A DNA stretch of 45,350 nucleotides from a virus. Taxonomy: Duplodnaviria > Heunggongvirae > Uroviricota > Caudoviricetes. Made by a program: the position numbers and the translations under genes. Within the stretch, counting starts at the first letter, position 1, and each line of letters begins with the position of its first letter. Below are positions 20,613 to 24,907 of this stretch, piece after piece. The stretch lies in the IMG/VR virus record IMGVR_UViG_2541047917_000003; one strand, written 5' to 3'. The notes beneath the pieces were generated by a model. The model did not search any database. It was not told the origin of the DNA and saw only the letters and a list, made by a program, of their open reading frames with translations.

Positions 20613-21134
20613 TCAGCACGCGATATCGAGAGTCAACTGCAGTTGCTCGCGCCAGTACTCAACATTTGCTTCAATAACCGGCTTATCCCATCGCCAGCGA
20701 GCCATCTCTCTTGCCCCATTGCTGGCTTTTGATTTCCGGTCATCGCGAATGCGACATGCTTGCTCATATTTCTGCTGCTCAGTCAGTTCACCGCGAAGCA
20801 GACTATCAATGTGCAGGTCGCACCACACAGCAAAACGAGCATCACACCAACGGGCAAATGCAACTGAAAGTTTTGGATGTAGCCACGTACCACCACCCCT
20901 GTCCTTTCGTGCCTTGCTGGTTTTTACATACCTCGATTGTGAGGGATGTAAAATTTGAGATTCTTTCCCGGTCAACGCTTCGTCTAAAGCACGAACGTAT
21001 TCAAGCGTTTCTGCCAAACGCATCCAGTTATCAATGCGTTTCCCAAATCTCTCAGCAACACCTGTGACGTTGATCCAACCATCAGTGTTGAAACTGACAA
21101 TTTCACCTTTGTAATTAAGTGGCACGATATTCAT
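20613..21134 (-). CDS. KilA-N domain protein
   Basis: 173-aa ORF; motif GGTWLHPKLSVAFARWCDARFAVWCD typical of the KilA-N DNA-binding domain; downstream of Rz. Confidence 0.7.
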   Translation of the reverse strand: MNIVPLNYKGEIVSFNTDGWINVTGVAERFGKRIDNWMRLAETLEYVRALDEALTGKESQILHPSQSRYVKTSKARKDRGGGTWLHPKLSVAFARWCDARFAVWCDLHIDSLLRGELTEQQKYEQACRIRDDRKSKASNGAREMARWRWDKPVIEANVEYWREQLQLTLDIAC

Positions 21135-21250
21135 AACGTTTACCTACCATTTGAAATGAACCTTTGCCGCACAGGAAACCAGCCCACCGAGGCTCGCCAG
21201 CACTAACTGGTATCCTCAAAGGCCCATTCCAAAGGGGCAGGTTCGGTGTA

Positions 21251-21307
21251 AAAAAAACATGCGTTGCGGTACGCATTTATTGCAAAAAAGCCCCGCATCG
21301 CGAGGCT
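21251..21307 (-). terminator. Two tandem intrinsic terminators downstream of Rz
   Basis: On the - strand: GCCTCGCGATGCGGGGC + TTTTTT (21284-21307) and ATGCGTACCGCAACGCAT + TTTTTTT (21251-21276). Confidence 0.6.
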
Positions 21308-21338
21308 CATTAAATGGACTTTGTGATTTGCAAAAAAA

Positions 21339-21797
21339 TTATTTCAGACATTGCGTCCTGATGTACTCCTGCAGGTAGTTAACCTGCGCGGTTATCCTGT
21401 CGATTCCACTTCGGAGACGGTAATAATTGAGTTCAGCATCTGCTGTAAGTCTTGGGCTTTCTCCATCGCCCATGCCGCTGGCTCCGGTCGTTGACTTTGC
21501 ACAGGTGGCGGCGACTTGCAGGCGCTTACGCCCAGCAGAAACATCAGCACGGAGACTTTCGATAGTCGCGTTAGCATCAGCAAGCTCCTTTGTGTATCTT
21601 GCGTCGAGTTCTGCTACATCACGTTGACGCTTCCGCATGTCAGCGATGGTGGCGTTCGCCTTCTCCAGTTCACTGGCCTTGTTATCGCGCTGCTCTTTGT
21701 AGGCGATTGCGTTATCACGGTAATGATTAACAGCCCATGACAGGCAGACGATGATGCAGATAACCAGAGCATAAATAATCGCGGCGACTCTGCTCAC
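21339..21797 (-). CDS. Rz: Spanin inner-membrane subunit Rz (i-spanin)
   Basis: ORF 21339..21812; likely GTG start overlapping the R stop (GTGA), giving (M)[30 protein letters not shown]..., close to lambda Rz N-terminus; TM helix plus coiled coil. Confidence 0.85.
21392..21583 (-). CDS. Rz1: Spanin outer-membrane lipoprotein Rz1 (o-spanin), embedded in Rz
   Basis: 63-aa ORF in the +1 frame inside Rz; signal peptide with lipobox (LLGVSAC) and Pro-rich segment. Confidence 0.75.
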
Positions 21798-22327
21798 TGA
21801 TCTATCCCCCAACAGGCTAATGCGCTTTCCTGGTCACGACGAATAACCTGTCCATAGCAGTTATTTGAACGTATGCGGCAATCGCGCCCACCATCTTTTA
21901 TCCACCAGCGAATCGCCTCGCATGCACCTTTACGATCACCGGCATTCAGCCGCTTATAAAACGTCGACGGGAAACACTTACCGGGGCCAATGTTATAGGG
22001 ACAAAATGACGCGATACCCGCTTTCTGTGGTTCGGTCAGTGGCACTTTAATATTGCGCTCCACCCATGCCAGCGCCTTATCCCGTTCAATGGCGTTAACC
22101 TGGTCGCATTTTTCCTTCGACAGTTTCATACCGGGAAAAACGGGTTTTCCATCCACCACCGTGGCACCCCGACAGATGGTCCAGATGCCGGAACCATCGC
22201 GGTATGCCGTTGTGTGGTTACCTTCTTTTTCATCCAGAAACTGGTCGAGAATATCAGGCGCAGGCGCACCGACGGCAATCAGTGCCAGAACGGCAGCCGA
22301 CAGGCCGTATCTGATTTTTGCGTTCAT
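21794..22327 (-). CDS. R: SAR endolysin (GH24 lysozyme with signal-anchor-release N-terminus)
   Basis: 177-aa ORF; N-terminal hydrophobic segment [16 protein letters not shown] then T4-lysozyme-like catalytic region (EG.HTTAYRD.SG.WTIC.G); resembles Qin/phage-21-type lysozymes, not lambda R. Confidence 0.9.
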
Positions 22328-22432
22328 GGATATTTATCAGGATTTATCGGTTTCTGAACCCTGGATATGTTTATCTGTCCCGGCCTGTTGAATCAGGCAA
22401 GGAATAGTTAAATACAATAGAGAGGATTGTTT

Positions 22433-22705
22433 ATGGACAATAGCACCATTTCTCTACAGGAGTTGCTCGACTGCATTTCCAGGCTTCGGGATGATGTAAA
22501 TGCCCTTACTGTCGCATTTTCATATCTGGCATTCTCAATTCCCAAGGAACAAATGCAACCAACACTGGCATCGCTCCAGCTTGAATCACTCAACCCCAAA
22601 TGGTCCCAGCAACAACAAAATTCTTTCAAGTGGCTGGCGGTATTACTGGAAGAAAAATATGCTGGTGAAATTACCATTTCGGCGGAGTCTTCAGAGAACC
22701 AGTAA
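22433..22705 (+). CDS. Hypothetical 90-aa protein on the opposite strand inside the lysis cassette
   Basis: ATG at 22433 preceded by AGAGGA; ORF track lists 22427..22705 from an upstream TTG. Convergent with and overlapping the 3' end of the 22671..23015 gene. No family recognised. Confidence 0.4.
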   Translation: MDNSTISLQELLDCISRLRDDVNALTVAFSYLAFSIPKEQMQPTLASLQLESLNPKWSQQQQNSFKWLAVLLEEKYAGEITISAESSENQ

Positions 22706-23015
22706 TTCTTCCCGGTAGCTTTCCTTTGTAGGTTATCCACACATTCTGCGCCTCTAAAATTATGGGGCGCTTTTCCGGCGACAGCTCATCCCCTTCACAT
22801 AACCCGGCAGCAACATCCAGGAAGACCTGTCTGATGCTCCTTCTGGCTGCTGCCTCATAAAACTCCAGCGCGGCACCTTCAACACGGTCCAGCGAGATGT
22901 CCAGGTCAAAAATTTCACCGTCAAAGCGTTTTTTGTCCCGTAACGCTAAAGTTACCGTAACTTTATTCTCAAAATTGCGGATCCCTTTCACAATCAGTTC
23001 ATAGTTTTGAGTCAT
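22671..23015 (-). CDS. Hypothetical protein between holin and endolysin (possibly YdfR/DUF1327-like)
   Basis: 114-aa ORF starting 5 nt after the holin stop; N-terminus MTQNYELIVKGIRNFENKVTVTLALRDKKRFDGEIFDLD. Family assignment is from memory. Confidence 0.5.
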   Translation of the reverse strand: MTQNYELIVKGIRNFENKVTVTLALRDKKRFDGEIFDLDISLDRVEGAALEFYEAAARRSIRQVFLDVAAGLCEGDELSPEKRPIILEAQNVWITYKGKLPGRITGSLKTPPKW

Positions 23016-23019
23016 TGAA

Positions 23020-23235
23020 TTACTCTCCCCGTGCAGCCTTACGCTTGTCTTCTTTAATCTTGAAATAAAGGTTTGTCAGGTACGTCAGCAGGCCAAATAC
23101 CAGGCTACCCAGCACTCCAATTGCCGCCCACTGTGAGGGCGTGACTTTATCTAGCAGCTGTAAAAACCAGTACCCGGCACTACCTGCTGAGGTGCCATAG
23201 GCGACACCCGTTGTTAACTTATCCATGGATTTCAT
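23020..23235 (-). CDS. S: Pinholin (phage-21 S-type) with dual start
   Basis: [26 protein letters not shown]...: two TM segments and charged C-terminus; MKxM dual start (antiholin/holin); SD gaggtgggg upstream. Confidence 0.85.
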
Positions 23236-23377
23236 AACCCCACCTCGCAGACAAAGCGGGTGTAAATTGAGGGAATACAACGTATCGCAAAAAAGCAGAA
23301 ACGTAACAGACTCGGAGTCAGTGAATAACTCAGGTATTGGGTTATCAGCTAATATCGAGACTCAAAAAATGGAAAAA

Positions 23378-23396
23378 CCCGCTCGACGGCGGGTTT
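23378..23396 (-). terminator. Intrinsic terminator-like hairpin upstream of the holin gene (candidate late-operon tR')
   Basis: CCCGC-TCGACG-GCGGG stem-loop with AAAAA on + (TTTTT on the - strand). Role as Q-modified terminator is inference. Confidence 0.4.
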
Positions 23397-23824
23397 AAGC
23401 TGTGTGACGAAGTAACCACTCTTAACAGCATAACCAATTTTTTACGTACGTAAACCACTAAATGATATTTGCGAGAATGCTACCGAGTATTGAAAACACC
23501 ACTACAAATACATAAGCAAATCTCAACAAATAACCAACAAATAATTTCCAGTGTTATTTTTAGCTGGTTTAAATTGAACCTTCAAATTATAGAGCACTTA
23601 TAAATAATAGCCGTTAATATAAATTGGCTAATAGATTTATTTTTATTCAGTCAAGAGCCATGAATAGGATTCGATAGAAAAAAGTTCAGATAAAAATAGA
23701 GATCTACTTCACAAATCAAACGAGAAACCAAAACTTACATCTTGAAATAATCACATTGATTAGATGAATATTTATCGCGCAGTGACATCATTTTTTAATA
23801 ATAGTTCAAAAAAAAGGGCTCACG

Positions 23825-24907
23825 ATGAAAAAATTAACAGTGGCAATTTCTGCTGTAGCTGCATCAGTACTGATGGCGATGTCTGCTCAGGCAGCTGAAA
23901 TTTATAATAAAGACAGTAACAAGCTGGATCTGTACGGGAAAGTTAATGCTAAGCACTACTTCTCCTCTAATGATGCAGATGATGGTGATACTACTTATGC
24001 CCGTCTTGGCTTCAAAGGTGAAACCCAAATCAACGATCAACTGACTGGTTTCGGTCAGTGGGAATATGAATTCAAAGGCAACCGCGCTGAATCTCAAGGT
24101 TCCTCCAAAGACAAAACCCGTCTTGCATTTGCAGGCCTGAAATTCGGTGACTACGGCTCAATCGATTACGGCCGTAACTACGGTGTAGCATACGACATCG
24201 GTGCGTGGACTGACGTTCTGCCAGAATTCGGTGGCGATACCTGGACCCAAACAGATGTGTTCATGACTGGTCGCACCACTGGTGTTGCAACCTATCGTAA
24301 CAACGACTTCTTTGGTCTGGTCGATGGCCTGAACTTTGCTGCTCAGTATCAGGGTAAAAATGACCGCACTGACGTAACTGAAGCCAATGGTGATGGTTTC
24401 GGTTTCTCCACTACTTATGAGTATGAAGGATTCGGCGTGGGTGCAACCTATGCTAAATCAGATCGCACTGACGGTCAGGTCGCCTATGGTAAGAGCAAAT
24501 TCAATGCCTCCGGCAAAAATGCGGAAGTATGGGCTGCAGGCCTGAAATATGATGCGAACAATATCTATCTGGCTACCACATATTCTGAAACTCAGAATAT
24601 GACCGTTTTTGGTAATAACCATATTGCAAACAAAGCACAAAACTTTGAAGCAGTAGCACAATATCAGTTTGACTTCGGTCTGCGACCATCTGTTGCTTAC
24701 CTTCAGTCAAAAGGTAAAGACCTTGGTGTTCATGGTGACCGAGACTTAGTCAAGTATGTCGATGTCGGTGCTACTTACTACTTTAATAAAAACATGTCCA
24801 CTTTTGTTGATTACAAAATCAACTTAATTGACGATAGTAAGTTTACCAAAACAGCTGGTATTGATACCGACGACATCGTCGCTGTAGGTCTGGTGTATCA
24901 GTTCTAA
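23825..24907 (+). CDS. Outer-membrane general porin, OmpC/OmpF family (phage-encoded Lc/NmpC-like)
   Basis: 360-aa ORF with signal peptide [30 protein letters not shown]...GKVN start and C-terminal ...VAVGLVYQF; sits between Q and S on the opposite strand as nmpC does in DLP12. Confidence 0.9.

Follow-up and report, generated by a model that had tools for sequence, protein, structure and literature searches.

Why does a lambdoid prophage carry, between two of its lysis genes, a small open reading frame (ORF) that points against both of them? The question is raised by IMG/VR record IMGVR_UViG_2541047917_000003, a stretch of 45,350 nucleotides (nt) from a virus of the Caudoviricetes, hereafter the window, which is an E. 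coli lambdoid prophage with identical DNA in many complete genomes. A gap of 343 bp (22328-22670) separates its gene for a 114-amino-acid (aa) protein of the YdfR family from the lysozyme (endolysin) gene, both on the minus strand. On the plus strand, a 90-codon ORF (22433..22705) is open from an ATG at 22433 to a TAA at 22703-22705; its last 35 nt (22671-22705) overlap the convergent 114-aa gene, and the Shine-Dalgarno (SD) sequence GAGAGGA (22420-22426) precedes the ATG at a spacing of 6 nt. An alternative upstream TTG start at 22427 would give 92 aa. Gap, overlap, SD with ATG, and ORF had all been described in an initial annotation made from the letters alone, and the sequence and the ORF list bear out each of them; that annotation proposed a small regulatory or moron protein, or else a reversed or wrong coding assignment. 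We conclude, with a probability of about 0.7, that the ORF is a real protein gene and that the moron cassette carrying it was inserted, in reverse orientation, into a lysis cassette of the phage-21/Qin type, between ydfR and the endolysin gene.

That the ORF is a real protein-coding moron gene is very likely. The NCBI Prokaryotic Genome Annotation Pipeline (PGAP) calls it a coding sequence for a hypothetical protein (WP_000370550.1; UniRef name Ybl58), and its residues 1-90 match phrog_2411 over all 90 profile positions (E 1.6e-59). The ORF is thus a full-length member of PHROG 2411, a family to which no function is assigned, and shows no difference from it. In a word-indexed search of 5.8 billion proteins, 64 relatives came up in Escherichia, Shigella and E. 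albertii, most of them exactly 90 aa long and 68-97% identical. A HMMER profile search of 1.84 billion representatives added distant relatives of 81-97 aa and 26-57% identity from other Enterobacterales. The starts of these distant homologues align, and they have in common the motif L..L...VN.L..AFsYLaF...e.l..T...L.fES.N; in the family alignment (A5), Y31, L32 and E51 are invariant.

At the DNA level, 167 copies were fetched from E. coli genomes and IMG/VR contigs. They comprise 32 distinct alleles, and a frame of 89-90 codons is kept in 164 of them (98%), the other three being truncated. The ratio of non-synonymous to synonymous change (dN/dS; Nei-Gojobori, NG86) was taken over the non-overlapping codons 1-79, in alleles of up to 14% nucleotide divergence; it is 0.17-0.5 in the plus frame versus ~0.7-4 in three other frames, and the excess of synonymous changes is significant in four allele pairs (binomial p = 3e-3 to 3e-6). 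The mirror frame is a separate matter. A minus-strand ORF of 110 aa (22408..22740) has its wobble positions in common with the plus-strand ORF, and its dN/dS is equally low because the third positions belong to both frames. Since dN/dS cannot separate the plus frame from this mirror frame, openness was used as the discriminator: the 110-aa ORF is open in the window allele only and carries 1-4 stops in 11 other alleles or homologues, so that it was rejected as a real gene and judged spurious. The initial annotation had recommended comparing the two overlapping frames across related prophages. On that comparison the plus frame is conserved and open in all alleles and distant homologues, and codons 1-79 are under purifying selection.

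The ORF lies in DNA that related prophages lack. Alignment to prophages in which the slot between ydfR and the lysozyme gene is empty (L006, L007 and L306; alignments A1 and A8) marks off about 285 bp of extra DNA (22389..22676, plus strand). This segment holds the 3′ part of the leader described below, the SD, the first 81 ORF codons, and the two codons and the stop with which YdfR now ends. From the ydfR stop to the lysozyme start there are ~50-63 bp in the three empty-slot prophages versus 343 bp in the window. GC content is 42.4% in the insert, 52.4% in the lysozyme gene, 47.5% in ydfR and 50.6% in the window as a whole. The earlier suggestion of a moron protein is supported by extra DNA relative to collinear prophages, lying between genes that are adjacent in related phages, by a low GC content unlike that of the neighbours, by an SD of its own, by a promoter-like leader, and by an orientation against the late operon. 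Full spacers are found in 1053 of 5426 complete E. coli genomes, while 2997 genomes match the region around the slot. As a side observation, YdfR of empty-slot prophages has 116 aa and ends ...TPPESQP, whereas that of the window ends ...TPPKW; the two differ at the extreme C-terminus only.

The overlap with ydfR is explained by the same event. The last 9-10 codons of the ORF and its stop lie in sequence that belongs to ydfR even in empty prophages. Across the 35 nt (22671..22705 on both strands; ORF codons ~80-90 and TAA against the last 10 sense codons and stop of YdfR), allele differences replace residues of the ORF tail (E to V, A to V, E to D, Q to P, E to G). Most of these variant alleles keep the YdfR C-terminus LPGRITGSLKTPPKW, and the alleles with E to D and Q to P carry LPGIITGSLKSPPKW. 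The ORF tail is not conserved in distant homologues. YdfR is thus the constrained frame across the overlap, and because the tail changes are silent for YdfR and the tail is disordered and unconserved, the overlap is read as an insertion scar, a by-product of the insertion that involves no mis-call of either gene. The suspicion of a reversed or wrong coding assignment is therefore not supported: YdfR matches DUF1327 over residues 1-112 of 114, the plus frame alone is open everywhere, both convergent genes are real, and the annotation of the window is settled.

Comparison of the DNA in front of distant homologues of the ORF brings out a common element of ~100 nt (~100-125 nt), which we call the leader. 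It begins with GGTGTTaCT, 9 nt, TAACCCTGG with the hexamer TAnnnT, and TTCAGCC, and continues with hairpin 1 (CGUCAGUG-GUGGGA-CACUGGCG), hairpin 2 (AGAGG-GAUGGCUGAUUA-CCUCU), and finally AAGGA and the ATG. Both loops, GUGGGA and GAUGGCUGAUUA, are invariant, as is the possible pairing UCAGCC:GGCUGA, for or against which covariation therefore does not speak. In an alignment of 49 sequences (A7), the CCTGG-TAnnnT box varies at hexamer positions 3-5 only, T, A and T being invariant at positions 1, 2 and 6. Both hairpins stay paired through changes on both sides, with G-U pairs on the cargo sense strand, and 500 of 500 column shuffles scored below the observed structure; covariation support is limited, since the alignment was seeded on an exact 21-nt pattern of hairpin 1. 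A covariance model of the leader (R1, ~125 positions) gives canonical members 46-129 bits, with phages HK022 and HK633 at 125-129 bits (L303:1485-1609 and L304:1309-1432, respectively).

The leader heads many genes other than members of PHROG 2411. The exact 21-nt pattern occurs in at least 120 IMG/VR contigs (canonical leaders L183-L302). Among the matches listed, 118 of 122 occurrences are followed, at a distance of 48-59 nt from the pattern, by the start of an ORF with an SD, and the cargo comprises at least 25 clusters of unrelated small ORFs at this fixed distance, mostly of 65-99 aa. When nine cluster representatives were scanned, seven matched PHROGs of unknown function and two had no PHROG match; hhalign detected no significant remote relationship of PHROG 2411 to the other cargo families, the best probabilities being 22-25%. 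Long ORFs that flank these cassettes most closely on either side (tape measure, M, L and others) nearly always occupy the opposite strand, and, by inspection, GC-rich hairpin/T-run terminators appear right after the cargo in many canonical cassettes. Named phages with the leader are HK022, HK633, mEp213, mEp043, ES18 and SPN3UB. Among the 5426 complete E. coli genomes the canonical leader is present in 55, and annotated in none. Five loci with canonical leaders gave no Rfam 15 match at E up to 0.1, and in the window (21000-24000) the only Rfam match was a chance Trp_leader at E 0.57. Searches of the literature for leader sequence strings found them in no paper, and the leader may have been noticed before. 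The leader and its cargo repertoire are the part of this analysis that may be new.

In the window, only the 5′ part of this leader and its SD region are present. The best R1 match (22341..22421, plus strand) scores 12.7 bits (E 0.23 for the 90 kb searched); it is the top match over the two strands and lies directly upstream of the ORF, on the expected strand. The promoter-like part and the SD region align, and the score is low because both hairpins (59 model positions) are replaced by 13 nt; the same outcome is seen at L001, L002, L003, L004 and L182. The promoter-like part (22324..22371, plus strand) covers the lysozyme start codon of the minus strand (22325-22327) and ends in the hexamer TATGTT (22366-22371), which follows the family pattern TAnnnT preceded by CCTGG. 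What makes the link to the canonical leader firm is E. coli A25 (L305, NZ_CP028750.1), in which the same lysozyme/DUF1327 slot holds a canonical leader (64.3 bits, E 2.6e-13) that agrees with window 22324-22371 at every base of its first ~48 nt, CCCTGGATATGTT included (alignment A8). The TGGATATGTT box is kept even in a 75%-identical copy linked to iha, and (A/T)GAGGA is retained in the alleles and in that copy. As in canonical cassettes, the ORF starts just after the SD and points against both of its minus-strand neighbours. Position, composition and orientation accordingly lead us to call it a moron, one with a truncated srb-type leader, and the label is qualified in this way because neither a terminator of its own nor a match to the full leader model, with both hairpins, was found.

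A small hairpin in the presumed 5′ untranslated region (UTR), GCCUG-UUGAAU-CAGGC (22383..22398, plus strand), stands at the position of canonical hairpin 1; the minimum free energy in the window is -15.7 kcal/mol (z = -2.2, which is weak), and an 86%-identical allele has a 7-bp version, CAGCCUG-UUGCCU-CAGGCUG. Two further candidate signals were dropped. TACAAT (22413-22418) as a -10 box would imply a start that removes the SD, and a supposed LexA box upstream is, by eye, CTG-N-CTG and no palindrome.

In empty slots the 5′ part of the leader is kept, and the break falls within hairpin 1 or immediately behind it (17 bits, E 0.013, for L306; CCGGTCAGTG persists in L006); because a leader stump is kept, these slots look like deletion derivatives. 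The empty slots lie at L306:1314-1390 and at 1201-1264 of L006 and L007. At the joint of L306, GCGGTGG|AGTCTTCAG, the string CGGTGG is also that of the ydfR 3′ end, which suggests deletion through a short repeat. The ydfR/R slot is a cassette site in four states, namely a full leader with another cargo, a truncated leader with PHROG 2411, an empty slot with a stump, and partial deletions (H59). The other cargo in A25 (L305:1314-1660) is a 48-aa ORF, MQKEVFINITADC..., that seems to continue in another frame and is probably a frameshifted gene of ~80 aa.

Members of PHROG 2411 are found well beyond this slot. The family travels as a single gene, usually against late genes or alone in chromosomes. 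A Citrobacter prophage (L009) has it on the other strand, immediately upstream of an unrelated holin/CHAP-endolysin/Rz cassette; elsewhere it separates tail genes M and L, from which it differs in strand (L174), or is near a large-terminase gene (L090) or next to an AIDA-type autotransporter gene (L173). The leader is present at L009:2887-3010, L090:3884-4011, L174:3890-4013 and L178:714-831. Chromosomal settings are dinI-X-bssS (L180) and L092. A distant member, P0078 (92 aa, E 6.7e-5), sits without a leader in a pyrC-dinI-X-bssS-solA-like chromosomal neighbourhood (L180:4001-4279 and L181:1463-1741). In Citrobacter meridianamericanus, the homologue overlaps a gene for a 238-aa protein (L009:3239-3955), which has no Pfam match and is not DUF1327, and whose last 12 residues, KITGSLRVPMKL, resemble the YdfR C-terminus RITGSLKTPPKW. 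DNA similarity to the E. coli locus goes on there past the stop of the small ORF, and for this reason the cassette seems to have moved with a 3′ piece of ydfR that became fused to another gene. Finally, an intact 90-codon copy, 75% identical, adjoins the siderophore receptor/adhesin gene iha between remnants of insertion sequences (L005:1080-1720; phrog_2411 match E 5.6e-34), and its flanks seem to hold the lysozyme start and the ydfR end in decayed form. Frameshifted versions of this iha-linked type exist (P0068 and P0070).

The protein itself is predicted to be a small helical domain. An AlphaFold2 model built from a 13-sequence alignment has three helices (residues 8-34, 38-52 and 59-76) and a mean predicted local distance difference test (pLDDT) score of 82, with residues 11-70 in blocks at 87-95; residues 81-90 are disordered and the tail has a pLDDT of 41. 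By this model and the family alignment, the conserved three-helix domain spans codons 1-80 (22433..22672, plus strand), wholly within the inserted DNA. By manual count the protein is acidic (12 D/E versus 6 K/R), and on inspection no signal peptide or membrane segment is visible in its 90 aa. Searches of Pfam, NCBIfam and PADLOC gave no match to it, and only noise across 16 family members; a PDB sequence profile search gave nothing better than E > 0.7, Foldseek found no match at E < 0.4 in PDB or BFVD, and a viral scan with P0067 found none. A literature search turned up no paper that mentions the name Ybl58. Because it is small, soluble, acidic and helical, with no recognisable catalytic or membrane feature, the protein would act by binding another protein. 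Our best guess, a tentative one that falls short of even odds, is a role in lysogenic conversion, in conflicts between phages or between phage and host (exclusion, defence or counter-defence), for which the reason is that many interchangeable cargo families stand behind one leader.

How might such a gene be expressed? The CCTGG-TAnnnT element would be the promoter, with TATGTT (22366-22371) as the -10 element, a reading that relies on the invariant T, A and T at positions 1, 2 and 6 of the hexamer and the freedom of positions 3-5. The plus-strand mRNA would then start near 22376-22380, with a 5′ UTR of ~55 nt that includes the small hairpin and GAGAGGA. Since the late operon, against which the gene is directed, stays silent in lysogens, the gene would be expressed from the prophage in the lysogenic state, and during lytic growth Q-modified late transcription would simply read through the cassette in antisense. 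For expression from the leader promoter in lysogens, judged from sequence, the odds are about even. A still broader proposal is that the leader is an undescribed structured 5′-UTR RNA with a possible UCAGCC:GGCUGA pseudoknot, serving lambdoid phages and their temperate relatives in Enterobacterales as a portable, reverse-oriented platform on which dozens of unrelated small cargoes are swapped in an integron-like manner, the 90-aa protein being one conflict cargo and the ydfR/R slot a hotspot. As a whole, we regard this proposal as possible but rather unlikely.

Several points weigh against the moron-cassette reading. The promoter, the transcription start and translation are all read from the DNA. 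The window leader lacks both hairpins, scores 12.7 bits and could be a crippled version; a generic sigma-70 scan finds no promoter upstream of the ORF, no terminator-like site follows 22705, although a terminator is a feature of the classical moron, and no site emerged consistently when the window and five homologous loci were scanned for promoter and terminator consensus sequences. As stated above, dN/dS by itself does not tell the plus frame from its mirror. Truncated (29, 46 and 59 aa) and frameshifted (94 aa) variants exist, and the iha-linked copy represents one recent lineage, in that its copies in 60 genomes are all ≥99% identical; its intactness therefore counts as a single observation, and its value as proof of long-term domestication is weakened. 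The 94-aa variants are recurrent (P0045, P0047, P0050, P0059 and P0064): they switch to the +1 frame after residues ~38-63 and end in ...LPFRRSLQRTSNSSR. In the window itself the +1 frame is open for 72 codons (22500-22718), and the 94-aa variants are independent frameshift alleles.

Four other explanations were weighed. One holds that the transcript matters more than the protein, with antisense or convergent transcription across the ydfR-R junction damping leaky endolysin expression or tuning the timing of lysis. The promoter-like leader abuts the lysozyme start codon, so orientation and position fit; with no terminator found after the ORF, plus-strand transcription would continue, in antisense, through ydfR into the holin gene, and the leader is conserved across many cargoes. 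However, the amino-acid sequence is under purifying selection and homologous proteins of 26-57% identity occur in unrelated contexts, from which it follows that the protein itself is selected. Canonical cassettes also seem, on inspection, to carry terminators after the cargo, which argues against long antisense read-out as a general function, and empty slots are common in prophages that keep intact lysis genes. We consider this explanation improbable, and assign much the same low standing to a second, in which the ORF is a decaying relic, a former moron that is now non-expressed and drifting to loss. The missing hairpins and terminator, the truncated or frameshifted copies, the many empty slots that resemble deletions, and the alternative cargo of A25, which appears frameshifted, would all suit a relic. 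The E. coli alleles behind truncated leaders nevertheless have dN/dS of 0.17-0.5 at up to 14% divergence and are 98% intact, and even the 75%-identical copy has retained both the SD and the TGGATATGTT box.

A functional pairing with YdfR, whether as antagonist or partner, in a toxin-antitoxin-like arrangement or by mutual antisense control through the 3′ overlap, appears quite improbable. All E. coli lysis-cassette alleles do show the convergent 3′ overlap with YdfR, and the Citrobacter homologue overlaps the 238-aa gene with its YdfR-like C-terminus KITGSLRVPMKL. A link at the RNA level is also conceivable, given that YdfR of K-12 reportedly binds the catalytic half of RNase E (two-hybrid and pull-down) and co-purifies with RNA (PMC13232886). 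Yet YdfR occurs without the ORF in many prophages, as the slot counts given above indicate (2997 against 1053), and where the ORF family is found among tail genes, near a terminase gene or in chromosomes, no DUF1327 gene adjoins it; Pfam does not recognise the Citrobacter 238-aa protein as DUF1327, the ORF shows no constraint over the overlapped codons, and the slot of strain A25 holds another cargo. Because each gene occurs without the other, the two are not an obligate pair. Least credible, to the point of being nearly negligible, is that the plus-strand frame is a chance spacer ORF or that the real gene is the 110-aa minus-strand ORF (22740..22408), which is longer, co-directional with the lysis genes and of equally low dN/dS, but is refuted by its stops in other alleles; its translation is rich in Cys and Ser, and its low dN/dS is the expected mirror effect of the wobble positions that it shares with the plus frame, which has deep protein homologues.

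The moron-cassette reading finds its closest parallel in phage HK022, where srb is annotated as "srb protein; moron gene product; gp23" (NC_002166). This 73-aa gene is flanked by the late tail genes I and J, which are on the other strand, and its 3′ end shares 81 nt with the convergent moron gp22; the architecture is that of the window, and the srb leader belongs to the same family (125 bits). It differs in that its product belongs to PHROG 6806 rather than PHROG 2411, with no significant hhalign relation, and in that it sits in the tail region behind a full two-hairpin leader, whereas the window ORF is in the lysis region behind the 5′ part only. A literature search yielded no informative paper on HK022 srb. 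As a minor observation, the Srb-type cargo (L303:1598-1819) gives a weak HMMER match to alignment A5 at the end of helix 1 and in helix 2 (EVTALKLAFGLLFARLP versus DVNALTVAFSYLAFSIP), and Srb against PHROG 2411 gives HMMER E values of 3e-4 to 6e-3 (119-sequence set); this is a possible remote homology, which hhalign does not confirm.

Morons were reportedly defined by Juhala et al. in 2000, for HK97 and HK022. Like the morons of those phages, the window cassette is extra DNA between otherwise adjacent genes, with deviating GC content and, it appears, expression signals of its own; a terminator, which forms part of the classical definition, was not found in the window cassette. Morons are expected to be expressed from the repressed prophage, and one of them, HK97 gp15, is an inner-membrane superinfection-exclusion protein (PMC3594210); the window protein, in contrast, looks soluble. 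The view that a convergent gene at a lysis cassette is unusual was overstated, since reverse-strand iss lies beside lysis genes in L007 and HK022 has reverse-strand morons. Lambda bor is on the strand opposite to the adjacent lysis genes and is expressed in lysogens. With bor and iss the ORF has in common that it is a reverse-strand gene beside lambdoid lysis genes (iss adjoins an Rz-like gene in L007). The bor and iss products, however, are outer-membrane lipoproteins encoded after Rz that have no sequence relation to the window ORF, while the latter has no signal peptide and sits inside the cassette, between ydfR and R.

Several consequences follow for work on these prophages. This selected small protein is encoded in about a fifth of complete E. 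coli genomes, among them those of the uropathogens CFT073 and UTI89, and is a cheap target for a screen of lysogenic conversion or phage exclusion. The conserved leader precedes at least 25 further small gene families, the 26-year-old HK022 srb moron among them. With its help moron cassettes could be found systematically, and their expression from silent prophages and exchange between phages could be tested.

Apart from the ORF, the lysis cassette is the standard S21-YdfR-R21-Rz set, all on the minus strand. It comprises a class II S21-type holin of 71 aa (23020..23235; Pfam PF04971 Phage_holin_2_1, 2e-35; PGAP essD), the YdfR-family (DUF1327) gene (22671..23015; Pfam PF07041, 4.1e-42, residues 1-112; PGAP "YdfR family protein"), an rrrQ/R21-like lysozyme (21794..22327; Pfam Phage_lysozyme, 1.4e-24; PGAP rrrQ), whose start abuts the leader, and Rz (21812..21339; Pfam Rz, 1.5e-40). 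The N-terminus of the lysozyme, read by eye, suggests a signal-arrest-release (SAR) character. A 63-aa ORF with a lipoprotein-like start (21392-21583, minus strand) lies inside Rz in another frame and is presumably Rz1. An otherwise identical prophage in strain CP53 has tRNA-Thr and tRNA-Asn genes on the side upstream of the holin, whereas a tRNA search found none in the window. On that side, an AT-rich region of ~590 bp (23240-23824) divides the holin from a divergent 360-aa OmpC/NmpC-like porin ORF (23825-24907). Within this region, on the late strand and upstream of the holin, a hairpin, AAACCCGCCGTCGAGCGGGTTT, resembles a terminator in having a T-run after it (23375-23396, minus strand), and could be one that Q-modified polymerase reads through.

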